DNA of 54,334 bases from an uncultured bacterium (lineage in GTDB: Bacteria > Hydrothermota > UBA3073 > NMUJ01). A program made the translations under genes and the position numbers. The notes beneath the pieces were generated by a model, which saw nothing but the letters and a program-made list of their open reading frames with translations, was not told the origin of the DNA and made no database searches. Location of the stretch: positions 1 through 54,334 of the forward strand of contig CBFDTI010000003.1 in the NCBI GenBank assembly GCA_965612795.1, given 5' to 3'. Positions 10,604 to 24,056 of the stretch are shown here, one piece after another. Position 1 is the first letter of the stretch, and each line of letters begins with the position of its first letter.

Positions 10604-12688
10604 ATGTTATTCGCGATAATTTTGATATCCACATACGATACGCTAACCGTACGCTATGCTGAAGGTATCAAGGTTGATGGCAATGTAGAAGTTCAATGGT
10701 ATCAAGCGGATTCAACATTTGTCTATCGACAGTTCTCCCCGTATTACGATAGTATTAGCACCTACAGGACAGTAGTCAAATGCCTACAGGATAGGGGTAA
10801 CTTATACTTTTTGTTTGATATACACACTGGTGGTGAACAACCCGTCGTTAAGCTTGCAGGTGCTGAGGACAGGGTAACGGTTTACATTGACCCTATGGAC
10901 TCAAAAGTTATGGCATATGGGTTCAGTGTGACAGCATCCAACCAACGCATCGATTGGCTCGTGCTCGATGACGGTAGATGGAGCGATTACACGTGGGCTG
11001 GCGTGTGGGAGAGTGCCACACGTGTTTATCGGAATGGCACAGATAATCGGTTGGTGATCGAAATCAAGATACCGTTTAAGACACTGAGGTTCAGAAATGA
11101 TATAGCGGATTGGGGGATACAGTTTCGTGTGTATTTTCAGCGATATAAAGAAACAAATTATTGGGTGTTACCGGACCAACGTGAGGGGCTTAGGGTATCT
11201 CAATTCGGTACACTTGCGCACGTGAAACCCACAGTTGTGGGTTATGGTATAGAGATCTATCCGGTGGGGCTTACAAAACATACCTTGTATCGAGAAGAAG
11301 AGAAAACGATACCATGGGTGGGGTTAGACTTCACTTGGAAAATATCGCCTTCACTTACACTTAATGTTACCGGGTGGCCGGATTTTGCTGAAATAGAATC
11401 AGACCCCTTCAAGATGAGCCTCAGCAAGTACGAAATCTATTATAGTGAAAGACGACCGTTCTTCCTTGAAGGTAAGGAGATATTCGAGCCTTCCGGGTTT
11501 GGTATCGTGAAGCCTTTCTATTCACGTAGGGTGGGCCGTCGTATGCGTGACGGTACGGGTGAGGTGCCAATACTTGGTGGCCTCAAGCTGACTGGTAAAA
11601 CTCGTAGGTGGGAATTTGGCCTATTATCTGCATACACAGGGGATAAGTTCGGTGATTGGGATACCGCCTATGCTACCCTGTGGAACGTTATCCGCTACAA
11701 ACACTATATTTTTACGAATTCGGAATTTGGAGGTATGTTAGCCACACGTATGGATAAGGGCTCCTCTTACTACGTGGTAGATGTAGACGGTAGTTTGCGA
11801 TCGACCCACGATAACCTGACATATCAGGTGGTTGGCAACCTCAGCCGCTCATCAGCTGGTATCTTCGCCAGCTGCAGGGGTGAGAAACGGTTATCACAGG
11901 AATATACAGTGTTTATGCAATCCACATATACGGGTGAGGGGTTTGACATATCGCCGTTGGGTTATGCGACTACGTTCGCGGGTGATAGAAGTATCTTTCT
12001 GTTCCTCCATAGGATGAAGTTCATATCCAAGGGTAATCTCGACCGCTGGTCATACGGGTTAGGCTACGGTAGCAACAAAGAAGCTAACGAACCTTGGTGC
12101 CATGCTATGTATCTTAATGGTTACTTAGGATTCAGGAAGCCGTTCCCAATACGTGTGAACCTATCCATAGGGGGTGGCAGATTTTACGAATCCGGTACCT
12201 ACTTCTGGGGTAAATCACTAAACTGGAATGTTGGGCTAAAACCCAAACAATATAGCTTCCAGATAGGTGGTTACTATGGATATGGGTGGAACTATCGACG
12301 TAATTTACTCGCCTGGCAAGGTACAATGCGGTTTAGTGCTTATGTACCGTTTTTGGGGAGATTTTCGTTAAATCCGTTCGGCAATTTATGGGTGGAGTTG
12401 GACCCACACGGTAAGTTACTACAGGTTACGATGACGGCTTCGATACACTTCGATATCATCATCACACCTTACATGGATGTAACGATAGCAACCAACCCCG
12501 TCGCTGTGTATGAAAGTGGTAAGCTACAGCTTACACAGGGACGTATAGCATTATTCTACTCGTGGGAATTCAAACCCAAATCCAAGTTCTACTTAGTATG
12601 GAATACGCTCTACACACAAAATGGAAACGGTTGGCAACCTATCGAACAAATAGCGGCAATCAAGCTACGCTGGTTGTTCCTGTTTTAG
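10604..12688 (+). CDS. Outer-membrane protein with N-terminal CBM9/DOMON-like domain and DUF5916-type beta-barrel
   Basis: IKVDG..E..W, W...WESAT, EIKIPFKTLRF (CBM9-like); PDFAEIESD, ERRPFFLEG, FYSRRVG (DUF5916 motifs); C-terminal Phe. Confidence 0.75.
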   Translation: MLFAIILISTYDTLTVRYAEGIKVDGNVEVQWYQADSTFVYRQFSPYYDSISTYRTVVKCLQDRGNLYFLFDIHTGGEQPVVKLAGAEDRVTVYIDPMDSKVMAYGFSVTASNQRIDWLVLDDGRWSDYTWAGVWESATRVYRNGTDNRLVIEIKIPFKTLRFRNDIADWGIQFRVYFQRYKETNYWVLPDQREGLRVSQFGTLAHVKPTVVGYGIEIYPVGLTKHTLYREEEKTIPWVGLDFTWKISPSLTLNVTGWPDFAEIESDPFKMSLSKYEIYYSERRPFFLEGKEIFEPSGFGIVKPFYSRRVGRRMRDGTGEVPILGGLKLTGKTRRWEFGLLSAYTGDKFGDWDTAYATLWNVIRYKHYIFTNSEFGGMLATRMDKGSSYYVVDVDGSLRSTHDNLTYQVVGNLSRSSAGIFASCRGEKRLSQEYTVFMQSTYTGEGFDISPLGYATTFAGDRSIFLFLHRMKFISKGNLDRWSYGLGYGSNKEANEPWCHAMYLNGYLGFRKPFPIRVNLSIGGGRFYESGTYFWGKSLNWNVGLKPKQYSFQIGGYYGYGWNYRRNLLAWQGTMRFSAYVPFLGRFSLNPFGNLWVELDPHGKLLQVTMTASIHFDIIITPYMDVTIATNPVAVYESGKLQLTQGRIALFYSWEFKPKSKFYLVWNTLYTQNGNGWQPIEQIAAIKLRWLFLF

Positions 12689-14062
12689 TACGATCTGACC
12701 GCGCTTGATGACAGCCAGTATCTTGTTTATACCCATATCCACCACTGTGATATCGGCAACATAACCAGGTGCGAGCTTACCATATTCGGTCTCCATAAAG
12801 CATGCATATGCGGGGTATTCAGTGAACCCCAGTATTGCTTCGTCGTAGCTGATATTGAGCTCGGGATTGGGGTGGTGGGTTGCACATTTTATACCAAATA
12901 GCGGATCGATATTTGTCACAGGTGAGTCTGAACCGAACCCCACCTTTATGTTACGATCGAATACTTTACGGAATGGGTTCATATTCATTGCTTTGCTGTA
13001 ACCGAGCCGCTCAACGTAAAGATTGTGGAATACACCTTCGAAGGCAGGTTGCATGGATAACACTATCCCATGACGTGCAACCTGTTCGATCTGCTCGTCG
13101 GTTATACATTCGGCATGCTCGATCCTATGTCGATGTTGAGGCACTCTTTTGTAAGTATCCAACAGTTGACGGATGGCACGTTCACCTATTGCGTGCATCG
13201 CCACCTGTAACCCAGTTTCGGCTGCTTTGCGCACGAATTGTAGCAGCTCATCGTCCGTGAAATATAATATACCACAGGTATCGCTGTCATGATAGGGGGT
13301 ATCCATTGCTGCTGTATGTGAGCTTATTGAGCCATCCACCAGCATACAACCACCTATACGTGGTAAGCCGAGGTCAACAACCGACTCTACATCTCTTGTT
13401 TGCACGTATGGTATCACATCTATCGGTAGGTCATCCTTTAGCTTATCATAAATTTTGTATTCCCTTAAGTTACTGAATAGCCCACAGATTGTTGTCACCC
13501 CATGGTTTATGGCATAGTTGCAGGTCAACTTTATCGCCTGTGCGATTATATCGTCCCCCATAGAGGACTGGATTTTGTACCAGATGGGTTCAAACTCCTC
13601 GCCACGCAATACTTCAGCTGCTGACGTTATACCTAACCTCCTACGTGCAGCAGTGTTCATCACACACGAGTGTAGATCCTCACGGATCACAATTATTGAT
13701 TGTGTTCGTGACACAGTATCGAGCTCACTAGTGGTTGGATACCTCTTCTCACGTAACCTGTGGGGTGCCAACCCATACGCGATTAGTGGTTCATGGTGTA
13801 AGTTCATACTTAGTATTGATAGCACATCGTCGATACATGTGGCTGGTTTGAGGTTGGGATAAACCATCATCACGCCAGTGGTCACCACATGTACATGTGT
13901 ATCCCAAAACCCTGGCAATATATACGCATTGTCGAACGTTTTCACCTCCATATTGGGTGGAAGCTGTGACACGTTTGTCACATCGTATATCCTGTCACCA
14001 TCTATAATCACAGTATCGCGATCTGGATGGTTAAATATTTTGTTGCCCGTAATCGCATACAT
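12665..14062 (-). CDS. Amidohydrolase family 3 (YtcJ-like) metal-dependent hydrolase
   Basis: PGFWDTHVH, DGSISSHTAA, HAIGERA, HRIEHA, GSDSP. Start moved to ATG 14062 (MYAITG). Convergent 24-bp overlap with the 10604 gene. Confidence 0.85.
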   Translation of the reverse strand: MYAITGNKIFNHPDRDTVIIDGDRIYDVTNVSQLPPNMEVKTFDNAYILPGFWDTHVHVVTTGVMMVYPNLKPATCIDDVLSILSMNLHHEPLIAYGLAPHRLREKRYPTTSELDTVSRTQSIIVIREDLHSCVMNTAARRRLGITSAAEVLRGEEFEPIWYKIQSSMGDDIIAQAIKLTCNYAINHGVTTICGLFSNLREYKIYDKLKDDLPIDVIPYVQTRDVESVVDLGLPRIGGCMLVDGSISSHTAAMDTPYHDSDTCGILYFTDDELLQFVRKAAETGLQVAMHAIGERAIRQLLDTYKRVPQHRHRIEHAECITDEQIEQVARHGIVLSMQPAFEGVFHNLYVERLGYSKAMNMNPFRKVFDRNIKVGFGSDSPVTNIDPLFGIKCATHHPNPELNISYDEAILGFTEYPAYACFMETEYGKLAPGYVADITVVDMGINKILAVIKRGQIVLKQEQPA

Positions 14063-14651
14063 CACGTAATTTACATGTTTCACAAAGTGGCCGTATAGGC
14101 CGACATATGGATTTACCAAAATGTACCATTGCGGGGTTGAGTTTTATCCAATATTCCTTAGGGATTAGATGTTTGAGTTGGGTCTCGGTCTCCTCCGGTC
14201 GGCTCGTATGTACGATACCAAGTCTATTCGATATCCTATGTACATGCGTATCTACAGGTAGGGAAGGTTGCTCAAACCCAAACGCTATCACACAGTTAGC
14301 CGTTTTGCGACCTACACCTGGAAGTTTAAGTAGCTCATCGATATCGCATGGTACCTCGCCATTGTATTCGTTCTTCAGTATCTCAGCGATCGCTTTTATC
14401 TTGACAGCTTTCACCCTGTAGAAGCCTACAGGTTTTATGAGTTCGGCTATCTCAGTTATGTCAGCGGTTGCAAGTTCATCTATTGATCTAAACCGCTTAA
14501 ATAATCGATTAGCTGCTGCGTGGGTAACTTCATCCTTTGTCCTGTGTGATAGTAAAGTAGCGATCAGTACTTGCCAGGGTTCGCGTTTACGTCTATGTAT
14601 GGGATATGAAGCAAAGAACTGCACAATACGTGCAAGCTTCGCATCCATCAA
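14031..14651 (-). CDS. nth: Endonuclease III
   Basis: HhH LPGVGRKTA, catalytic VDTHVHR, FCL cluster C-x6-C-x2-C-x5-C (CRPIRPLCETCKLRDVC). Confidence 0.95.
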   Translation of the reverse strand: MMDAKLARIVQFFASYPIHRRKREPWQVLIATLLSHRTKDEVTHAAANRLFKRFRSIDELATADITEIAELIKPVGFYRVKAVKIKAIAEILKNEYNGEVPCDIDELLKLPGVGRKTANCVIAFGFEQPSLPVDTHVHRISNRLGIVHTSRPEETETQLKHLIPKEYWIKLNPAMVHFGKSICRPIRPLCETCKLRDVCDYGQQNI

Positions 14652-15922
14652 TCCGGTGTAAGCTTCCTACGTACCCCTATCATATAGCCGATGTTCACGG
14701 GTATCATGAACGGACAATACTTTATACTCCGTATGATACGACGTAATACTCTCAACGGTGAGTAAAATGCCTTATACGCATAGTTGAGCCCATCCATGAG
14801 CTCTTTGGGGGTCATGTTCTTGGGTTTATACACCACATGTAACGCATCATATTTTGACCAATCATACGTTGTGATCCTATTCTCTCTTTGGAGTTTATCA
14901 AACAACCTCGTCCCCGGCAATGGTGTAAGTATCGAGAATATTGCTGCATCTACCTGCGCCCTATCGAGGAAATTGACCGTACGCTGAAATACATGCTTAT
15001 CATCTGCATCCATACCGAACATCATCGATGCTATCACCGCGATACCAAATTTATGCAACAGGTTGATTATTTTCTTGTAATCCACGAGATTGAACGCCTT
15101 GTTTATCTCCTGTAGTGCCTTTTTCGATATGGTTTCAAACCCAATGAATAGTGCACGGCAGCCACTTTTGGCAGCAAGCTTAATGAGTTCCACGTTTTTG
15201 AGTGTGTTGAGTGAAGCTTCGCCACCCCACTTGATCCTCAGTGGCGTAAGTGCTTTGAATAGTTGTTTGGCATATTTGATGTTGGCAAATATGTTGTCGT
15301 CCACAAATATAACGAACCGCTTACCGAACTTTTTGATCTCTTCGACCACCTTCTCGACGGGTTTCACCCGTATCTTGCGACCAAAAAATGTCGATACTGA
15401 GCAGAATGAACAGGCATTAGGACAACCACGTGTTGCCTGAATGAACATCACATAACGTGACCGCTGTGGTAATAAATCCCAGCGTGGCATGGGTGTGGTG
15501 CTGAGGTCACACAGCTGCCCTTTGTAGATGGGTTTAAGCCCATTATTTGATGCATCTTCTAACACTTTTTGCCAGACGGGTTCGGCTTCACCTACAACTA
15601 CGGAATCGCTAAACCTAAGTGCTTCATCCGTCATAAACGATGGATGCATACCACCAAGTACAACCTTGGTACCACGTTTACGAAACTCGGTCGCTATCTC
15701 ATACGCACGTGGTGCGTTACAGGTGAGCGCAGTTATAGCAACCAAATCATAGCGGTGGTTGAAGTCTATTTTACTGTAACGTTCGTCGATAATATGTATC
15801 TCATGTTCACGCGGGGTTAACCCTGCTATCGTGAGCAAGTTCAACGGTGGTGTCCTGTATATGGGACGTTCTTTGCGATTATATTTAGCATAACGGTTGG
15901 GGTAGATTAAGGCTATTTTCAT
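14648..15922 (-). CDS. B12-binding-domain radical SAM protein
   Basis: N-terminal cobalamin-binding-like domain (VVLGGMHPS, VVVGEAE) and CxxxCxxC (RGCPNACSFC), FVDDN, IGFE, TPLPGT. Confidence 0.9.
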   Translation of the reverse strand: MKIALIYPNRYAKYNRKERPIYRTPPLNLLTIAGLTPREHEIHIIDERYSKIDFNHRYDLVAITALTCNAPRAYEIATEFRKRGTKVVLGGMHPSFMTDEALRFSDSVVVGEAEPVWQKVLEDASNNGLKPIYKGQLCDLSTTPMPRWDLLPQRSRYVMFIQATRGCPNACSFCSVSTFFGRKIRVKPVEKVVEEIKKFGKRFVIFVDDNIFANIKYAKQLFKALTPLRIKWGGEASLNTLKNVELIKLAAKSGCRALFIGFETISKKALQEINKAFNLVDYKKIINLLHKFGIAVIASMMFGMDADDKHVFQRTVNFLDRAQVDAAIFSILTPLPGTRLFDKLQRENRITTYDWSKYDALHVVYKPKNMTPKELMDGLNYAYKAFYSPLRVLRRIIRSIKYCPFMIPVNIGYMIGVRRKLTPD

Positions 15923-15928
15923 CTATTT

Positions 15929-15955
15929 AAAATAACCGAGCTAAAAATTTTTCAA
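15929..15955 (-). promoter_or_regulatory. Putative promoter TTGAAA-N15-TATTTT, 6 nt before the radical SAM ATG (leaderless)
   Basis: Minus strand reads ttgaaa aatttttagctcggt tatttt aaatag ATG; no Shine-Dalgarno. Confidence 0.55.
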
Positions 15956-15995
15956 CCACAAACTTCCTAAGTTGGCTAACCAACCGTGGATTAGC

Positions 15996-18638
15996 TCACA
16001 AGCCAGCAAGCTCGAACAAAAATCTTGACGGTTTCATCTTACGAGTATAACGTAACCTGGGATATGACAGGTAGACATGTTCGGTTGCACGTGTAAGTGC
16101 CACATAGAACAGGCGACGTTCTTCGTCAAGCTCATCGGGATCGAGTGTCGCACGCATAAGCGGAAATATATCATCGGTAAGTGACACAAGGAACACAACC
16201 TTAAACTCTAACCCCTTTGCTTGGTGTGCGGTGAGCAGCTTCACAGTATCCTTACCCCACTGTGCAACCTGCAGCTCTTCGAGTAACGCGATATGGTTTA
16301 AGAACTCACGTATTTCACCCCTACCGAAACCACGTGCAGCGTTGATCAGCTCCTCCAGGTTATATGCGCGGTTGATATCGCTTATCTCTTGGGCTACCTT
16401 CAACTTAGGTACAAAGCCTGAATCTATCAGCACGATTTCGAGTATCTCTGATACACCGAACTGCGAAGGTTCCCTCAGTATGGTGTTGAACCGTTCAAGG
16501 TACGATGTTAACCTCTCTTTATCTAATGCATTGGGTAGTTCACCCTTAAGCACAATCTGTTTATTCTTTATGCCGAAACATTTCTTGTAGGTTTTAGGTA
16601 GCATCAACACCCACATGATGAAATCCACCATACCTTGATAGCTGCCAGTGGTTAGACGTTCGAGGAACTTGATACACCTTTTGATTTCACGTCTTGCGTA
16701 GAAAGTTTCACCTTCCACCAACATGTACGGTATGTTGAAACTCGATAGCGTGTTTTCGAACACCGAAGATATTGCATTTATCCTATAAATTATTGCGATA
16801 TCCGAGAACTTAAACCCATGCTTCTTGACGAGCTCCTCAATCTGTGCACCTACCTGCCAAGCTTCTTCGGACTCGTTCTCATAAGATTGTAGCTCTATCT
16901 TGCCTTCGGTTTCACGTAAGCTGATACTGGGATGTGTCTCACCCTCTATTTTGCTAACCAATGTCTGTGCTGCATTCAGTATCTTCTTAGGTATACGAAA
17001 GTTATTTGTCAACAAGTATACCTTTACCTGTGGGAAGTCACGTTCCACACGCTCCCTGAACCTATGCATACCGCCACGCCAGCTGTAGATGGATTGATTC
17101 TCATCACCTGTAAAGAAGATGTTTCCACCCGCAAGCAGCTTTATCAATTCATACTGTGCAGGCGTCAGATCTTGTAGCTCATCTGCGAACACCCACTTAA
17201 ATATCCCACGATAATGTGCACCGATGTCGGGTTCACGTAACGCCTGTACACCGTAGTAGATGAGATCAGATAGATCCATCATCTGCTTATCCTTAAGTGC
17301 ACGTTGATATCTATCGTATATCTCAGCACACTCGTGATCCCATTCGCTGCGTGCAAGTTGTTTGGCACGTTCGGGTGATATGAGGTTTGCTTTGTAGAGT
17401 TCGATACGTTCAAGCATCGCCTCTATCCTTGATAGCTCCTCACCTTTGGCGATACTACGTAATACATGCCAGGCATTGATTATGGAGAAATCCTCCTTAA
17501 ACCCTAATCTTTTACCATCGTGTTTCAATATCCTATACGCCAAGGTATGTACTGTATCGACCACGAGGTTACGTAACTCTTTACCTATGATGTGTTCCAG
17601 CCGTGTTCGCATATCGTCGACAGCACGCCTAGTGAACCCCACTATTAGAAAGGAACCGGGGTCCTCACCTTCACGTAACAGCTTAGCTACCCTATAGATA
17701 AGTGTAACGGTTTTACCGGTACCGGGGCCACCCAACACCAGTATTTGAGGTGCGTCGGAGTTGATAATCTCCTCCTGCTGTGGTGTGAGGACTATCTCCT
17801 CTTCGAATACCTCGATAGGTGATTTGACAACTTCAACCGCCACACCACTTTTGCGACCCGGTGACAATATTGCGGATTTGAACTCATCTGCTGTGCTGAA
17901 ACGTGCCTCTGGATCTTTATCAATCGCCTTTCTTATCACCTTATCGATATGTGCAGGTACTTTGGGGTTGAATACCGTAACTTTGGGTGGATAGCTATTG
18001 AAAATCTTCTCACGAATATCGTCAAGACTATCACCAAGGAAGGCTGGCTTACCGGTGAGCATCTCGTAGAATATAACACCTGCTGAGTAGATGTCAGATT
18101 GTTGGTAAAACTTACCACGCCATGCCTCAGGTGCCATGTATATCGGTGTACCTGCTATGCTGGCAGATAGGCTACCCTCGCGTACGAATTTACCTAACCC
18201 AAAGTCTGTAATCTTAACTGTATCGTCACTTGTTATCAATATATTTTCGGGTTTGAGGTCACGATGTATCACACCACGTTTATGTGCGTAATGGATAGCG
18301 TCCAACATCTGTACCATGTAATGGATGGCCTTATCCCACGGTAGCTTACCTTTGGTGAGCATATCGCGAAGCGATTTACCGCGAATGTATTCCATGACCA
18401 GCACGAGTTTACCTTCGATTATGTCGATATTGAAAAACCGTACGATGTTGGGGTGGTTCAACGAAGCTAACAGCTTGGCCTCATCCTTTAGCATGACAAT
18501 ATCCTGTTCACGCATACGGGCAACCTTTATGGCGAACTCACGTTCGAGTATGGTATCCCATACTAAATATACGTCACCAAACTGGCCACCCCCTAACCAC
18601 GCATTTATCTTGTACTTACCCAGCTGGGTGAGTATCAT
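15996..18638 (-). CDS. Hanks-type Ser/Thr protein kinase fused to UvrD/PcrA-family SF1A helicase
   Basis: Kinase (about aa 1-260): LGGGQFGDVY, FAIK, HRDLKPEN, DFG, GTPIYMAPE. Helicase (about aa 283-880): LTPQQ, GGPGTGKT, FTRRA, DELQD, GDENQSIYSWRG, TAHQAKGLEF, EERRLFYVALTRA, PSRFL. One continuous ORF. Confidence 0.92.
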   Translation of the reverse strand: MILTQLGKYKINAWLGGGQFGDVYLVWDTILEREFAIKVARMREQDIVMLKDEAKLLASLNHPNIVRFFNIDIIEGKLVLVMEYIRGKSLRDMLTKGKLPWDKAIHYMVQMLDAIHYAHKRGVIHRDLKPENILITSDDTVKITDFGLGKFVREGSLSASIAGTPIYMAPEAWRGKFYQQSDIYSAGVIFYEMLTGKPAFLGDSLDDIREKIFNSYPPKVTVFNPKVPAHIDKVIRKAIDKDPEARFSTADEFKSAILSPGRKSGVAVEVVKSPIEVFEEEIVLTPQQEEIINSDAPQILVLGGPGTGKTVTLIYRVAKLLREGEDPGSFLIVGFTRRAVDDMRTRLEHIIGKELRNLVVDTVHTLAYRILKHDGKRLGFKEDFSIINAWHVLRSIAKGEELSRIEAMLERIELYKANLISPERAKQLARSEWDHECAEIYDRYQRALKDKQMMDLSDLIYYGVQALREPDIGAHYRGIFKWVFADELQDLTPAQYELIKLLAGGNIFFTGDENQSIYSWRGGMHRFRERVERDFPQVKVYLLTNNFRIPKKILNAAQTLVSKIEGETHPSISLRETEGKIELQSYENESEEAWQVGAQIEELVKKHGFKFSDIAIIYRINAISSVFENTLSSFNIPYMLVEGETFYARREIKRCIKFLERLTTGSYQGMVDFIMWVLMLPKTYKKCFGIKNKQIVLKGELPNALDKERLTSYLERFNTILREPSQFGVSEILEIVLIDSGFVPKLKVAQEISDINRAYNLEELINAARGFGRGEIREFLNHIALLEELQVAQWGKDTVKLLTAHQAKGLEFKVVFLVSLTDDIFPLMRATLDPDELDEERRLFYVALTRATEHVYLSYPRLRYTRKMKPSRFLFELAGL

Positions 18639-19525
18639 CGAGCCGCGGCAAACAGGTGGACTGGGTTACCCTCCCCATGTAATGTCATACGTGCAGCTAC
18701 TTTATCGTTGAGCTTACGTGCCTCATGTGCGATACCTACACCGGGGTAGGTCTCCCAACCATCTTCCCAGATGGTGTTGAAAAACTCACGTAGGGTGTCG
18801 ATATCTGCACTCGTAGGTGCAGCAAATGCTATGCTTTCGAGTGCATAGCTTTTAAGCAGTTGTGGTAGGTATTTATCGAATAGAGTCGGGGATGCAAATA
18901 TATCGGCAAAACATCTCTTACCCATTTTCACTATCATACCTACGTAATGGGGGTTGGATTCAAACTCCTTGCAGTATTCCTCCAACAGATCGTGCAGGCT
19001 AGTGAACGCATCATGTAGCGATTGTGTACGTGAACGTACCTTAAGTGATTCCAAAGTATGGGCTACTGAATGCCATATGCGGGATTGGTTGGTATCAAAC
19101 CTACGTGTGGCACGAAGTGATTGTGTCACATCTTCGAGCAACATCGCACGTAACGATGGATACGATGTGGTATTACCAGCGGCAAACGTCAGCTCACCTG
19201 ACCAACGTGATCGCTCGACACAACTTACGGGTACATCAACCTCACTGCGTTCAGCTATGAGTGCAGCTGTATTAAGTATGCGGTTCTGGTAGCCACCGAC
19301 GATCTCCTCGCCATCGATAAGATAGAGTGGATTAGGGCCATCGTATGCGATATGTATGGTGGGTATCGTGGGCGAACTTGCTTCTGAGATACGTACCCAG
19401 TTATTGGCCTGTGCCTCACGTAATGTGACAATATCTGTGCCGTTACCATTGCTGCCAATCACCGGGACAATAAACAGGTTACGTATGAACCGCGGCTCAC
19501 CTAACTTAAGGTTTTCGTGCCACAT
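18635..19525 (-). CDS. ARPP-1/DUF6569-like protein
   Basis: LYLIDGEEIVGGYQNRILN, VPVSCVERSRW, QSRIW, DIFASPTLF...LLKSYALE match the ARPP-1 (DUF6569) family pattern as I recall it. Stop overlaps the kinase-helicase ATG (ATGA). Confidence 0.75.
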   Translation of the reverse strand: MWHENLKLGEPRFIRNLFIVPVIGSNGNGTDIVTLREAQANNWVRISEASSPTIPTIHIAYDGPNPLYLIDGEEIVGGYQNRILNTAALIAERSEVDVPVSCVERSRWSGELTFAAGNTTSYPSLRAMLLEDVTQSLRATRRFDTNQSRIWHSVAHTLESLKVRSRTQSLHDAFTSLHDLLEEYCKEFESNPHYVGMIVKMGKRCFADIFASPTLFDKYLPQLLKSYALESIAFAAPTSADIDTLREFFNTIWEDGWETYPGVGIAHEARKLNDKVAARMTLHGEGNPVHLFAAAR

Positions 19526-19532
19526 CTCAATA

Positions 19533-19559
19533 AATTTAACCCAAAAATCTTACCGTCAA
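19533..19559 (-). promoter_or_regulatory. Putative promoter TTGACG-N15-TAAATT, 7 nt before the ARPP-1 ATG (leaderless)
   Basis: Minus strand reads ttgacg gtaagatttttgggt taaatt tattgag ATG. Confidence 0.6.
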
Positions 19560-19585
19560 ATGTCCACTTTTACTTTAAATAGCTA

Positions 19586-19612
19586 TTGACATATGGGTTT
19601 ATCCCATATTTT
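19586..19612 (+). promoter_or_regulatory. Putative tpiA-operon promoter TTGACA-N15-TATTTT with an internal inverted repeat
   Basis: TTGACA 19586-19591, TATTTT 19607-19612; ATATGGG-N5-CCCATAT at 19591-19609. Confidence 0.6.
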
Positions 19613-19622
19613 GAATATCCAC

Positions 19623-20390
19623 ATGCGTAAAAAGATAATCGCTGGTAACTGGAAGATGCACAAAACCGTAGGTGATGCGATCGCCCTGGCCTCTGGCATA
19701 GTTGACAGCTACAAGCCGGAGCGGGTTGAGGTTGTCATCGCACCACCATTCACTGCATTGTACAAGGTAGCCGAGGTCATACGTGGTACACATGTGAGGT
19801 TGGGTGCACAGAACATGTTTCACGAACCCGAAGGTGCGTATACAGGTGAGGTATCACCCATCATGCTCAAGGATATAGGTGTGGAATATGTTATTATCGG
19901 GCATTCCGAACGTCGCAAGTATTTTGGTGAAACCGACACCACCGTGAACTTAAAGGTCAAATCTGCACTCAAACACAACCTTATACCGATAGTATGTGTA
20001 GGTGAGACGCTCGACGAACGTGAACATGGTATCACCATGGACGTAGTAAGACGACAGATTTTGGGTGCATTCACCGATATAACAGCGGATGCTTTCGAGC
20101 ACATTGTCATAGCTTACGAACCCGTATGGGCGATAGGTACGGGTAAGGTGGCCACCCCCGAACAGGCGGTTGAGGTACATAGATTCATAAGAGAGGTGTT
20201 GCGAAACGAACTCAATGTAAAGGCCGAAAACGTGTCCATACTCTATGGTGGTAGCATCAAACCCAACAATATCGAATCTTTAATAAAGGAACCCGATATC
20301 GATGGTGGGCTCGTCGGTGGTGCAAGCTTGAGGGTTGACCAATTCGTTGAGATTGTTAAAATTTCGGATAGAATCGTAGGAGGCAACTGA
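19623..20390 (+). CDS. tpiA: Triosephosphate isomerase
   Basis: IAGNWKM, IIGHSERR, AYEPVWAIGTG, YGGS, LVGGASL; start set at ATG 19623. Confidence 0.97.
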   Translation: MRKKIIAGNWKMHKTVGDAIALASGIVDSYKPERVEVVIAPPFTALYKVAEVIRGTHVRLGAQNMFHEPEGAYTGEVSPIMLKDIGVEYVIIGHSERRKYFGETDTTVNLKVKSALKHNLIPIVCVGETLDEREHGITMDVVRRQILGAFTDITADAFEHIVIAYEPVWAIGTGKVATPEQAVEVHRFIREVLRNELNVKAENVSILYGGSIKPNNIESLIKEPDIDGGLVGGASLRVDQFVEIVKISDRIVGGN

Positions 20391-20686
20391 TGGGTGTGCT
20401 GCTTGGGCTGCACGTGTTTATCGCGTTAGTTCTTATCCTGGTGATCCTCATGCAACCTTCACGTGCAGGTGGACTTGGTGCTATAGGAGGTGGTACAACA
20501 TACTTTGGGCCACGTGGATATGTGCCGTTTCTTACTAAAATCACAGTAGGTGCAGCCGTTATATTTTTTATTACCTCGCTCAGCCTTACACTTATGATTT
20601 CGCGTGCACGTACGAAAAGTGCTATCGAAAAGGCTATCGAGAAGGGGCCAACACCTACTGAAGAAAGGGTACCCACAGAAAGATGA
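20390..20686 (+). CDS. secG: Preprotein translocase subunit SecG
   Basis: Two TM helices flanking 'ILMQPSRAGGLGAIGGG', LTKIT motif, canonical position after tpiA. Confidence 0.9.
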   Translation: MGVLLGLHVFIALVLILVILMQPSRAGGLGAIGGGTTYFGPRGYVPFLTKITVGAAVIFFITSLSLTLMISRARTKSAIEKAIEKGPTPTEERVPTER

Positions 20687-20997
20687 AGGAAGCAGTTGTC
20701 GAGATAAAAGGTGCCCAGTATAGGGTAAGGGAGAACGACGTTGTGAAGGTACCCAAACTCGATGCTAACGTCGGTGATACAGTTAAGTTTACAACAGTAC
20801 TGTTGGCTATAAAAGACGGTAAAACCATAGTCGGTACCCCTTATGTGGAAGGTGCTGAATGTGTCGCAAAAGTGTTGGAAACCAAAAAGGATAAAAAGAT
20901 CATCGTCTATAAGTATAAGCCCAAAAAACGTTACTACAGGATGAAAGGGCACCGTCAATGGTACACAAAGATAAAGATTGAAAAGCTCAACCTTTAA
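20683..20997 (+). CDS. rplU: 50S ribosomal protein bL21
   Basis: AVVEIKGAQYRV, GTPYVEGA, KGHRQWYT. Confidence 0.96.
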   Translation: MKEAVVEIKGAQYRVRENDVVKVPKLDANVGDTVKFTTVLLAIKDGKTIVGTPYVEGAECVAKVLETKKDKKIIVYKYKPKKRYYRMKGHRQWYTKIKIEKLNL

Positions 20998-21006
20998 GGA
21001 GGAAAT

Positions 21007-21270
21007 ATGGCACATAAAAAGGGGGCAGGTGCTTCCCGAAACGGCCGTGATTCCAAACCCAAATACCTGGGGGTGAAGCGGTACGATGGACAGCTTGTAA
21101 ACACAGGTGAGATACTCGTACGGCAACGAGGTACACGATTTCTACCCGGTATAAACGTGGGTAGGGGTGGTGACGATACATTGTTTGCACTCGCAACAGG
21201 TAAGGTTAAATTCACCACTCGTAGAGGTAAGAAGATAGTGCACGTGCTCCCTGTGGATGGAACTGGCTGA
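21007..21270 (+). CDS. rpmA: 50S ribosomal protein bL27
   Basis: [33 protein letters not shown]; no N-terminal extension and no prp/ysxB gene between rplU and rpmA. Confidence 0.97.
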
Positions 21271-22327
21271 ACTTGAGGATTGGTTACGACTTGCCATCGC
21301 ACCAGGTGTGGGGGAGGCCAAACTTGTTAAGTTGATAACACAATATGGTGACCCCAAATCCATATTCCATGTAGATAAAGAGACACTAAAACATCAAGTA
21401 GGTGAAGAAGCCGCTAATGGTATAGATAATATCAAAGGTTACGATGTGAAGCGTTTCGTAGAGATTATGGATAAGCTTAATATACAGTTGATACCAATGA
21501 CAGATGCGAAATATCCAAAGGTGTTGCTTCAACTATCTGTACCACCACCTATGCTTTTTGTAAGGGGTGAGCTATGTGACGAAGATACTCGTGGTGTAGC
21601 AATCGTAGGTGCCCGTAAAGCTACCAATTACGGTAGGAATGTTGCACACCACTTAGCCTATGAATTGGCACGTACGGGGGTAACCATCATATCGGGTATG
21701 GCAAGAGGTATAGACACTGAGGCACATAAAGGGGCACTCGAAGCCAACGGCAGAACCATAGCGGTGTGGGGCTCGGGACTCGATTGGGTCTATCCAGCCG
21801 AAAACCGCTACCTTGCCAACCACATAATTAACAATGGCGCATGTGTGTCGGAATTCCCACCCCGTACCAGGCCCGAAGCTGGTAACTTTCCACGCCGTAA
21901 CCGTATAATAAGTGCACTGTCAAGAGCTGTTATAGTAGTTGAAGCTGCTATCACGTCGGGTGTCATGCATACCGTACGGTGGGCGTTAGAGCTCGGTCGT
22001 GATGTACTTGCAGTACCTGGTAACATAACAAGCCGTATGAGTGAAGGTACAAATATGCTTATAGCACAAGGGGCACATGTCATCACCAAGGTGGAGGACA
22101 TATTTGAGCTACTCAACATCGACTATAAGGTGAAAAAGGTTGAGGTTGAATTAACTGATGAAGAAAAATCTGTATTGGAGGTGTTGACAGACGAACCCCA
22201 ACATGTGGACGATATAGCTGAACGTCTGAACATGCCCGTACAGAGGTTGACCGCCATACTTCTGACATTAGAGTTAAAACGTCAAGTTAAGCAATTACCT
22301 GGACGAAATTTTATACGTCTACCTTGA
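21257..22327 (+). CDS. dprA: DNA-processing protein DprA
   Basis: [41 protein letters not shown]-terminal winged helix (LLTLELK). Confidence 0.95.
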
Positions 22328-22350
22328 CAAAATTGTGACAACCTTAAGAT
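22324..22350 (+). promoter_or_regulatory. Putative ferredoxin promoter TTGACA-N15-TAAGAT
   Basis: TTGACA 22324-22329 overlaps the dprA stop; TAAGAT 22345-22350; RBS aaggagg downstream. Confidence 0.6.
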
Positions 22351-22372
22351 GTAAGTTAGAAAAGGAGGTAAG

Positions 22373-22555
22373 ATGCGAGTGACGATAGACGAGGACGCAT
22401 GCATCGGTTGTGGCGTGTGTGAAGCTATGTGTCCAGAAGTCTTCAAAGTGGAGGGTGACAAGGCGAAAGTCATCGATCCCGAAGGTTGCAACGGCTGTAA
22501 CTGTCAGGAGGTGGCTGAGTCCTGTCCCACACAGGCTATAATAATCGAAGCGTGA
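22373..22555 (+). CDS. Small [4Fe-4S] ferredoxin
   Basis: CIGCGVCEAMCPEVF and C-terminal ESCPTQAI; strong RBS. Confidence 0.93.
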   Translation: MRVTIDEDACIGCGVCEAMCPEVFKVEGDKAKVIDPEGCNGCNCQEVAESCPTQAIIIEA

Positions 22556-22574
22556 TGACGGATAGACTTTCGCG

Positions 22575-22722
22575 CTGGTATAGGTTTATTGGTCATGGGA
22601 AAGGTGTCCGTACCTCAAGGAGGGGGGCCACAAATTGTGAAGTTCTAGCACACATTCTAATACCATTAGGGGACAGCTGGGTGGCCCCCTTCCCATAACT
22701 ATGGAGTTGAAATATAAACCAG
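22575..22722. ncRNA. Candidate structured RNA element of unknown family
   Basis: Nested complementary segments GGTTTAT/ATAAACC, ATGGGAA/TTCCCAT and GGGGGCCAC/GTGGCCCCC, plus three small internal hairpins, in a roughly 195-nt intergenic gap. Confidence 0.4.
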
Positions 22723-22751
22723 TATGTGGCCGACCCTCATAATATAAATAG

Positions 22752-24056
22752 ATGATGAAACACCCCGCTATAGTGTTGCTGTTCATTATAATATTTACAG
22801 GATGCGTACATTTTAAATCCTACTTCAACCTTTTCTACAACGCGAAGAAAGACTACGAGGAAGCAATCAAAACGGAACCACCGTCCAAACAGAAATTAGA
22901 TAAGGTGATAGAAAGGTGTGGCAAAATAATAAAGTATTATCCCACATCACGTTGGGTACCTGATGCCGTATTGCTCATGGGTAAGGCGTTCCTCGCAAAG
23001 GGTGAGTACAGTCAAGCTGAGGAGAAGTTTCGTGAATTTATCAAGTTTTTCCCCGAACACAAAGCCTGTAACGAAGCACGTTATATGCTGGCAGAGACCT
23101 ACATCAAACAAGGTGACCTCATAAAGGCACGTGAGCTGTTGGAACCACTCATATCCACAAGCAAAGGACAGCTCTGCGAAAGAGCTTATTATCTGTTGAT
23201 ACAATCATACTTCGAAGAGCGTGCCTATTATGAAGCTATAGATAAAGGTGAACAGTTTCTGAAACGGTTTCCAAAAAGTTCATACAAAGGTGATGTGTTG
23301 TTGACATTAGGTGCGGCGTATGATTCGCTTCGCAAATACGAACATGCAGCCACCATGTACCAGCAAGCGCTACGGTTTGCGACACGCAAAAACCCCATAC
23401 TTATAAAGCTGGCACGTGCTGAAATATTGATGGGTAACGTAGAGGAGGGGTTAAATAAGCTCGAAGAACTACGTAAGAGGGTGACCGATCCCACCGAAGA
23501 GGAAGCTATTGCACTAGAGATGGCAAGAGGTTACATAGAGCTTGGTGACACAAATAGGGCTATCGACCTGCTGCAGAAATATACGAATTCGGTCAATGCA
23601 CTGTTATTACTTGCAGAGATATATGAATGGCTATGCAACTACAAAGAAGCGGCCCAGTATTACGATGAGATTGCACGGAAAGGCGCCCCCCTCCTACGTG
23701 CGAGGGCCAGCTTACGCAAAGAGGCTATCGATAAGCTTCTCAAGTATGAAGCAGATACAAGTATGACGGATACCACTATATTTAGGTTGGCAGAATTGTA
23801 TCTGTTTGAGTTCGATCAACTCGATAAGGCACGCCAATATTACCTTCAGGTGTGGCAGGATTATCCCCAAAGCCGGTATGCACCCAAGGCGGGGTTGGCT
23901 TTGGCATGGATCGCACGTCATAAGGATAATAACCCCGAATTGGCTTGTGAGTATTATGAGGCAGTAATCGAACGTTACCCCAACACCTATTATGCACGTA
24001 AAGCAAGCGAGCTACTGAATGCAGTACGTGAAAGTAGAGATAATAAAGAACAGTGA
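22752..24056 (+). CDS. TPR-repeat lipoprotein (BamD/CpoB-like repeats)
   Basis: Lipobox IFTGC after a hydrophobic stretch; repeated TPR-type helices with 'YP.S' turns (YYPTSRW, FPKSSY, YPQSRY, YPNTYY). Confidence 0.75.
   Translation: MMKHPAIVLLFIIIFTGCVHFKSYFNLFYNAKKDYEEAIKTEPPSKQKLDKVIERCGKIIKYYPTSRWVPDAVLLMGKAFLAKGEYSQAEEKFREFIKFFPEHKACNEARYMLAETYIKQGDLIKARELLEPLISTSKGQLCERAYYLLIQSYFEERAYYEAIDKGEQFLKRFPKSSYKGDVLLTLGAAYDSLRKYEHAATMYQQALRFATRKNPILIKLARAEILMGNVEEGLNKLEELRKRVTDPTEEEAIALEMARGYIELGDTNRAIDLLQKYTNSVNALLLLAEIYEWLCNYKEAAQYYDEIARKGAPLLRARASLRKEAIDKLLKYEADTSMTDTTIFRLAELYLFEFDQLDKARQYYLQVWQDYPQSRYAPKAGLALAWIARHKDNNPELACEYYEAVIERYPNTYYARKASELLNAVRESRDNKEQ

Follow-up and report, generated by a model that had tools for sequence, protein, structure and literature searches.

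What does a bacterium use a protein kinase for when it is permanently joined to a DNA helicase, and does the small gene in front of it belong to the same device? A locus in the DNA of an uncultured bacterium of the phylum Hydrothermota raises this question. The stretch analysed here, called the window, is 54,334 nucleotides long (positions 1 to 54,334 of contig CBFDTI010000003.1, assembly GCA_965612795.1). It holds an ARPP-1 gene (ARPP below) followed by a gene that encodes a Hanks-type Ser/Thr kinase joined to a PcrA/UvrD-type helicase of superfamily 1A (SF1A), here called the fusion. An earlier reading of these letters without any searches (the sequence-only reading) had proposed the pair as an undescribed signalling or defence module. 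We suggest, with moderate confidence, that kinase and DNA motor are coupled in a two-gene chromosomal module, inherited for the most part vertically, in which ARPP is the partner of the fusion. The pair looks like a housekeeping DNA-linked signalling pair and not like a phage-defence island.

Both enzyme halves of the fusion are predicted to be catalytically intact. The Pkinase match (PF00069, residues 9-251) scored 190.2 bits against a cut-off of 31.7, the UvrD-helicase match (residues 284-536) 191.2 bits against 23, and the UvrD_C match (residues 542-859) 167.8 bits against 25.6. Conserved residues were read from an alignment of 20 diverse full-length relatives. In the kinase, G16/G18/G21, K38, E53, H125, D127, K129, N132, D145-F146-G147, T164-P165, P170-E171 and R246 are invariant (20/20), covering the Gly-rich loop, the VAIK Lys, the alphaC Glu, the HRD...N catalytic loop, DFG and APE. 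The sole variation in a catalytic motif affects R126, the Arg of HRD, which is present in at least 90% of the 20 sequences; two have HGD instead. These two (rows P0117 and P0119) are Hydrothermia-named relatives and would be non-RD kinases, so this branch may have a different mode of kinase activation. Invariant helicase residues are G303/G306/G308-K309-T310, D486-E487-Q489-D490, G511-D512-Q515-Y518-R521 and F547-R548, together with H805-A807-K808-G809 and E839-E840-R842-R850. The Q motif, Walker A (GxxGxGKT), DExQD and motifs III-VI are all intact.

In bacteria, Hanks kinases usually take their input from membrane or extracellular sensors. The kinase half of the fusion (residues 6-259) aligns to the kinase domains of StkP and PknB, its closest solved structures (E 1e-41 to 1e-46), and has all of their catalytic motifs. 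Unlike these kinases, the fusion has no membrane span, PASTA domain or extracellular sensor; the "sensor" would be a cytoplasmic helicase. No PASTA or other extra domain was detected in it by Pfam. The highest Kyte-Doolittle hydropathy over 19 residues reached 1.38 in the fusion and 1.11 in ARPP. Because neither protein has a suitably hydrophobic stretch, no membrane span is suggested for either and, with no signal peptide, both are predicted to be cytoplasmic.

The helicase half shares its motifs and Pfam domains with the SF1A 3'-5' helicases PcrA, UvrD and Rep. Residues 284-877 align to residues 12-641 of the 724 residues of PcrA from G. stearothermophilus (1PJR; E 6.6e-81), ending three residues short of the end of the fusion. 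Since the alignment stops at residue 641 of 724 where the protein itself ends, the C-terminal tail (Tudor-like) domain is absent. The canonical 630-aa PcrA-like protein of the same genome likewise has no such tail. Compared to PcrA, UvrD and Rep, the fusion adds an N-terminal kinase of ~280 residues, lacks the tail domain and falls below the PcrA equivalog cut-off (TIGR01073, 381.5 bits against 911.2). It does not reach the UvrD equivalog cut-off either (TIGR01075, 293.3 bits against 1144.45). The Pfam results, the hydropathy, the 20-sequence alignment and the 1PJR alignment agree with the earlier description of a cytoplasmic protein with intact kinase and helicase motifs and with neither PASTA nor a C-terminal Tudor-like domain.

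This architecture is widespread. Among the best 120 clusters listed for the fusion from a collection of 5.8 billion proteins, 117 are full-length fusions (at least 98% query coverage, 36-98% identity) that carry both Pkinase and UvrD labels. The other three are a 546-aa fragment with both labels and two kinases only. Source organisms named among the listed clusters are WOR-3, TA06, Hydrothermota/Hydrothermia and Stahlbacteria. We also surveyed 272 genomes of the window's phylum, including the window's own (G000), for matches at E <= 1e-100. The fusion was found in 113/272, always with exactly one match per genome, and its presence is nearly all-or-none by family (e.g. 6/6 genomes in f16, 6/6 in f18, 8/8 in f24 and 5/5 in f25). 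Misassembly, which the sequence-only reading had named as a possible source of the fusion, is ruled out because a single copy recurs in so many genomes.

A tree of the fusion was built with FastTree from 99 complete proteins, leaving out 12 truncated ones and two that were missed by open reading frame calling. Families group together in this tree, which follows taxonomy. Because the gene is single copy, is present or absent in whole families and clusters by family in the tree, the fusion looks like a vertically inherited core gene by its pattern, with mostly vertical inheritance.

The gene that accompanies the fusion most consistently is ARPP. We surveyed the ~6 kb to either side of every one of the 113 fusion genes using simple longest-open-reading-frame calls, and set aside eight loci at which no ARPP was seen and the contig ends less than 1 kb upstream. 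At 66/113 loci, or 66/105 of those assessable, a same-strand ARPP gene occurs no more than two genes away from the fusion; the pairing seen in the window is therefore found in other genomes, as the sequence-only reading would require. Nearly all linked ARPP genes precede the fusion, 59 immediately and five with one gene between, and two (in G225 and G226) follow immediately downstream. With longest-frame starts, the two genes overlap or are at most 10 bp apart in 36/66 linked loci. At L182 and L221, where the fusion was confirmed by tblastn, no ARPP was found. ARPP is the only neighbour that is conserved across many housekeeping contexts; other neighbours change by family, and elsewhere include genes for an outer-membrane protein, metK, tsaB, a rhomboid, a VTT-domain protein and glycosyltransferases. 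A 146-aa gene that is often found upstream of ARPP in f33 and f34 was considered as a third component and rejected. It is lipoprotein-like, lies beside an outer-membrane protein gene and is absent from other ARPP loci.

Fusion and ARPP stay together in genomes even where they are not neighbours. The ARPP of the window belongs to a "short" subfamily, for which we used a profile that gives full-length short-type proteins at least 264 bits and other-type proteins less than 213 bits. At full strength (E <= 1e-78), short-type ARPP was detected in 107/113 fusion genomes compared to 5/159 others. In the six remaining fusion genomes, two ARPPs are truncated at contig ends, one is a weak fragment and three genomes have no match (75%, 80% and 93% complete). 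At least one of the five fusion-less genomes with a short ARPP, G043, encodes a Pkinase domain within an open frame of 847 aa, probably a fusion that was missed by the survey at E <= 1e-100. In a tree of 104 ARPP proteins, the 65 fusion-linked sequences group with 20 unlinked ones of fusion genomes in a single clade (support 99), whose internal order mirrors the fusion tree. The 19 other-type ARPPs fall on the other side of the tree; they are either additional (second or third) paralogues or stem from genomes without a fusion. By eye, most of these 19 (among L246-L265) have an N-terminal hydrophobic leader or a lipobox-like motif; an exported ARPP type thus seems to exist in the phylum alongside the cytoplasmic type.

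ARPP itself is a predicted Cys/Gln enzyme. The ARPP-1 family match (PF20208) scored 227.9 bits against a cut-off of 27 and spans residues 6-293, or profile positions 2-296 of 297. Q80, R82, C102, E104, R107, W108, R126, Q147 and W151 are invariant in both subfamilies, with C102, Q80 and Q147 present in 85/85 short-type and 19/19 other-type proteins. Conservation of F13, P123, S169, H171 and D172 is restricted to the short type. An AlphaFold (AF2) model had a pLDDT (per-residue model confidence) of 93.7. Foldseek of this model against the PDB gave no meaningful match, the best being polyketide dehydratase domains (TM 0.14-0.16, probability <=0.23), and the ARPP profile found nothing below E 0.5 among PDB sequences. 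ESM Atlas gave no usable match for ARPP. No longer, fused forms of ARPP were found, although this is weak evidence. Passages of Iyer, Burroughs, Anantharaman and Aravind (2022, PMC9503650) describe ARPP as unrelated to characterised domains, with an absolutely conserved Cys and Gln that suggest an enzyme, and propose that it may cross-link to sugars like SRAP; an action on ribose or sugar moieties has been proposed for it. The contexts given in these passages are ADP-ribose systems centred on ADP-ribosylglycohydrolase (ARG) and two-gene pairs with HIRAN, WYL or an aminosugar deacetylase. They do not mention a kinase-helicase context; the supplements of that paper may list more contexts.

At the locus itself (Table 1), both open reading frames and the stop/start overlap are as the sequence-only reading described them, and the overlap suggests translational coupling. 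The promoter that it assigned to the unit was not confirmed. A consensus scan, which performed no better than on shuffled sequence, placed no sigma-70-like site in the ARPP-tpiA spacer, where an arrangement of TTGACG, 15 nt and TAAATT, seven bases before the ATG, is visible by eye only. Similarly, no terminator was predicted in the spacer behind the fusion (again by a scan no better than on shuffled sequence). Host-like DNA is supported by a G+C content of 0.44-0.48 across the region and by codon usage, for which the fusion ranks 5th and ARPP 25th among the 36 window genes in closeness to the rest of the window.

Table 1. Coordinates of the features discussed; positions are those of the window except in the last row.
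Feature	Position	Strand	Basis or remark
ARPP-1 gene, cytoplasmic "short" subfamily, 296 aa	18635..19525	(-)	Pfam PF20208, conserved residues, AF2 model
Fusion gene, 880 aa, Hanks Ser/Thr kinase + SF1A PcrA/UvrD-type helicase	15996..18638	(-)	Pfam, alignment
Kinase domain of fusion, residues 9-251	17886..18614	(-)	RD type (HRDLKPEN), DFG, GTPxYMAPE
Helicase core of fusion, residues 284-859	16062..17789	(-)	UvrD-helicase + UvrD_C
ATGA overlap, ARPP stop TGA / fusion start ATG	18635..18638	(-)	read in sequence
67-bp divergent spacer, ARPP / tpiA	19526..19592		presumed to hold promoter
73-bp spacer, fusion stop / next same-strand gene	15923..15995		
B12-binding radical SAM gene, next gene past fusion	14648-15922	(-)	
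Genes of L281 (contig C4)	2303-3097, 3182-4921, 4884-6776, 7616-8611, 9056-9532		

Pfam identified tpiA, secG, rplU, dprA, radical SAM, HhH-GPD and amidohydrolase genes among the neighbours (10604-15922 and 19593-24056). Downstream of the fusion and on the same strand (12665-15922, -) lie the B12-binding radical SAM gene, an Nth-like HhH-GPD glycosylase gene, which overlaps the radical SAM gene ATGA-style, and the amidohydrolase gene. This string is common to the genus-mate G263 and was not seen in other families. The dprA gene (21257-22327, +) is 1.7 kb upstream of the pair on the opposite strand.

Sequencing runs were compared as contigs throughout. Contigs from two metatranscriptome libraries span the whole stretch, and one of them (X18 record 21, 17943-18904) crosses the ARPP/fusion junction. 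However, the flanking genes are all covered too, and the depth of these libraries resembles that of the DNA run, so that the coverage speaks neither for transcription nor for co-transcription. A ~95%-identical relative from one marine-sediment sample (DNA and RNA libraries) has contigs that diverge from the window at 19562/19584, with more than 2 kb of unlike sequence; this breakpoint is a rearrangement or insertion inside the ARPP-tpiA spacer. Both the ~95%-identical metagenomic relative and G263 have an indel of ~110 bp (15969/15980) in the spacer that separates the fusion from the radical SAM gene. Despite this indel, G263 is collinear with the window at the tpiA spacer.

We also asked which other kinases and helicases the organism has. 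The genome is 1.42 Mb and 99.5% complete, and the fusion is its only Pkinase match; PP2C_2, FHA, SpoIIE and PP2C had no match in it. Across the phylum, the fusion is the only Pkinase match (E <= 1e-10) in 10/113 fusion genomes, mostly smaller ones and G000 included. Besides the fusion, G000 holds two further UvrD-family genes. One is the 630-aa PcrA-like gene, which overlaps the end of uvrC and scores 704 bits to TIGR01073, and the other, on contig C20, encodes at least 788 aa. A separate canonical PcrA-like gene is therefore present, in a uvrC-pcrA operon, and its sequence sets the fusion apart from that PcrA as a third paralogue of the UvrD family. The region around the uvrC-linked gene (contig C4, 13000-27000; L281) also clusters three genes of NAD+/ADP-ribose type: a Sir2 gene upstream, and downstream the genome's only ADP-ribosylglycohydrolase gene and a SLOG (LDcluster4) gene.

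Unlinked ARPP genes were examined for their own neighbours (L227-L235, L238-L240 and L271-L279), using Pfam on one representative of each context and phmmer for the other members. ARPP is immediately followed by rel at five loci of f15 and f16, in 4 genomes (gap +2 or -23 bp), and by cdaA at 9/9 sampled loci of f17 and f18 (gap -4 or +1 bp). In f24 it is flanked by a GGDEF-STAND gene on one side and a convergent Nudix gene on the other (3/3 loci), and in f23 it heads a string of ARPP, carbamoyltransferase and Nudix genes (3/3 loci). Contexts unrelated to nucleotides are found in f14, f19, f25 and f38, where the neighbours are DUF6754, cupin and methyltransferase, glycosyltransferase or peroxiredoxin genes. 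Several nucleotide-messenger enzymes among so few independent contexts are suggestive of a tie between ARPP and second-messenger enzymes. It should also be noted that in G040 the ARPP-rel locus occurs twice in near-identical form, each time flanked by the same genes (contigs C63 and C74; L230 and L231). As 5% contamination is listed for this genome, the doubled locus could be a duplication, a strain mixture or contamination.

The component families of the pair are known, and their combination is uncharacterised. Our search of the full-text literature found no description of a bacterial kinase-UvrD or kinase-helicase fusion. As for the ARG-centred ARPP systems described in parts of PMC9503650, the window's ARPP has the family match and the conserved Cys and Gln in common with them. 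It differs in belonging to a cytoplasmic subfamily with conserved positions of its own, and no ARG or rhodanese-phosphatase gene is found among the window neighbours (rhodanese-phosphatase was not searched genome-wide). The only ARG match of G000 is on contig C4, away from the pair.

The closest precedent for the kinase half comes from Bacillus subtilis. Passages of PMC4754617 describe YabT as a Hanks kinase that depends on single-stranded DNA and phosphorylates RecA, a precedent for DNA-activated kinases in bacteria. Its likeness to the fusion would lie in the proposed working logic, a kinase tied to single-stranded DNA, with homology limited to the kinase fold. The DNA-binding part of YabT is a short basic region; the kinase is anchored in the membrane and is not known to have a helicase motor or an ARPP partner. 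A DNA-linked signalling role of the fusion is suggested by its architecture, an intact SF1A motor with an intact RD-type kinase, and by analogy to YabT. In such a role, the helicase core would load on or move along single-stranded DNA at gaps, forks or lesions, and this action would position or activate the kinase. The kinase may then phosphorylate itself, DNA-bound proteins and/or ARPP, which would work with the fusion as a lesion or nucleotide sensor, a regulator or a substrate. The data show that the module exists and is conserved, with intact motifs, linkage to and co-occurrence with ARPP, a housekeeping context and no second Pkinase match in this genome. That the kinase depends on DNA, in which direction signals pass, what chemistry ARPP performs and that the pair serves genome maintenance or stress signalling are inferred.

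Several observations weigh against this reading. ARPP is not adjacent to the fusion in 39/105 assessable loci. On the fusion tree, the unlinked state comprises one clade of 34 complete rows (f14-f19 and f23-f25) together with f38 and G228, and adjacency therefore reflects few evolutionary events, with at least three changes needed. Co-occurrence of the two genes is phylogenetically structured, so that the counts overstate independence. The contexts of unlinked ARPP beside rel, cdaA, GGDEF and Nudix genes point to nucleotide signalling rather than DNA repair. For the repair-flavoured neighbours in the window, the Nth-like gene two genes downstream of the fusion and the nearby dprA, conservation does not extend past the genus.

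A further point concerns the history of the pair in the window's own lineage. The sequence-only reading had inferred long residence. This holds for the genus, in which the pair is resident because G263 is collinear with the window (13441-22056, 95% identity). However, neither gene is found in the 20 other genomes listed for the window's class (families f2-f7). The nearest relatives of the fusion outside the genus have 50% identity and belong to other families. An "empty site", with tpiA beside the radical SAM gene, was looked for in five genomes of the same class; in G261 these two genes are on different contigs, which is uninformative. Both loss elsewhere and transfer within the phylum are compatible with these data.

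Three other explanations have to be weighed. In one, ARPP is the centre of nucleotide or ADP-ribose signalling: it senses or converts a ribose metabolite and controls the enzyme to which it is coupled, the kinase-helicase is one of several outputs, and the helicase need not monitor DNA damage. The unlinked orthologues beside rel, cdaA, GGDEF-STAND/Nudix and carbamoyltransferase/Nudix genes favour this explanation, as do the passages of PMC9503650 that tie ARPP to systems processing ADP-ribose. However, each of these associations is confined to one or two related families and represents few independent events, and the Pfam identities come from single representatives with the rest assigned by phmmer. 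In addition, tight spacing of unrelated genes is common in compact genomes, the other unlinked contexts have no relation to nucleotides, and the kinase-helicase is by far the most widespread partner of ARPP. We therefore regard this explanation as rather unlikely. It is also conceivable that the two proteins have no direct functional coupling, with the fusion acting alone, for example as a specialised helicase that regulates itself through an autophosphorylating kinase, and ARPP an old co-inherited operon neighbour. The small number of changes (~3) that adjacency needs on the fusion tree is consistent with this, and the 34-row clade does well without adjacency. On the other hand, adjacency outlasts the rearrangement of all other neighbours and even the reversal of gene order in two families, more than half of the linked loci have an overlap or a gap of at most 10 bp, short ARPP co-occurs with the fusion where the two are unlinked, and the ARPP and fusion trees are congruent. 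An absence of coupling is thus improbable in our judgement.

Anti-phage defence would have the helicase sense phage DNA or replication intermediates and the kinase trigger abortive infection by mass phosphorylation, following a logic of the Stk2, PD-T4-6 or Gabija type. PADLOC models do match individual domains of the fusion (GajB, 279 bits over residues 282-876; PD-T4-6, ~250 bits, and mad6, 257 bits, on the kinase), and passages of PMC9503650 class ARPP among the components of conflict systems. These matches are at the domain level only, however, and the GajB models that match the helicase half are generic UvrD-family profiles. Against the NCBIfam defence models, the fusion scores far below the cut-offs (MAD6, 188.1 bits against 460; PglW, 106 against 990), and ARPP has no PADLOC match. 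In agreement with the sequence-only reading, the pair therefore matches no described defence system. No GajA (OLD-family ATPase/TOPRIM nuclease) or other defence partner was found among the neighbours scanned with Pfam and PADLOC, and no BREX or MADS genes among those tested. Of six neighbours tested in PADLOC, three had domain-level matches only, on housekeeping proteins. Such matches can mislead, as with DprA against ShosA (221 bits) and the Nth-like protein against a nicking endonuclease.

The distribution of the fusion is not defence-like either. The single copy, the presence or absence by whole family, the tree congruent with taxonomy, the housekeeping surroundings, the host-like composition and codon usage, and the retention of the fusion as sole Pkinase match in 1.4-Mb genomes all argue against defence. 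Plasmid and phage collections gave no full-length fusion and only matches to the helicase half, and a pattern-based search of limited sensitivity found no relatives of the ARPP profile or the kinase domain on viral contigs; all these collections hold few or no relatives of this phylum. One plasmid protein (H3; CP114554.1, 108291-110468, Candidatus Manganitrophus) has a UvrD domain and aligns to fusion residues 169-878 at 27% identity. This alignment starts inside the kinase C-lobe, and the protein could be another N-terminally extended member of the UvrD family. A pattern search of genome contigs with generic kinase and UvrD motifs was discarded because all 80 kept loci were ordinary UvrD helicases from other phyla. 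Overall, a defence function is very doubtful, and while the signalling half of the module proposed by the sequence-only reading fits the evidence, its defence half is disfavoured.

A bolder version of DNA-linked signalling is that the pair is a counterpart, in logic, to the DNA-damage kinases of eukaryotes. Here, the motor would carry the cell's only Hanks kinase along DNA, the Cys of ARPP would mark or read damaged sugars in the manner of SRAP, and their encounter would switch on phosphorylation. The sugars in question might be at abasic sites, blocked 3' ends or ADP-ribosylated DNA, and the targets of the kinase might be replication or repair proteins. We consider this version speculative and unlikely as it stands. 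If true, it would mean that a dedicated checkpoint-type pathway is kept even in 1.4-Mb genomes.

To our knowledge, YabT is the only bacterial kinase for which activation by DNA has reasonable documentation. Permanent fusion of a kinase to a translocating DNA motor would physically link DNA transactions with phospho-signalling, and this fusion is conserved over a candidate phylum and kept as the only Pkinase match in some streamlined genomes. ARPP-1, a family without a solved or recognisable fold relative, gains a new and very consistent partner, which makes the pair a tractable one for finding the role of ARPP. As both proteins are predicted to be soluble, heterologous expression may be feasible even though the organisms are uncultured.

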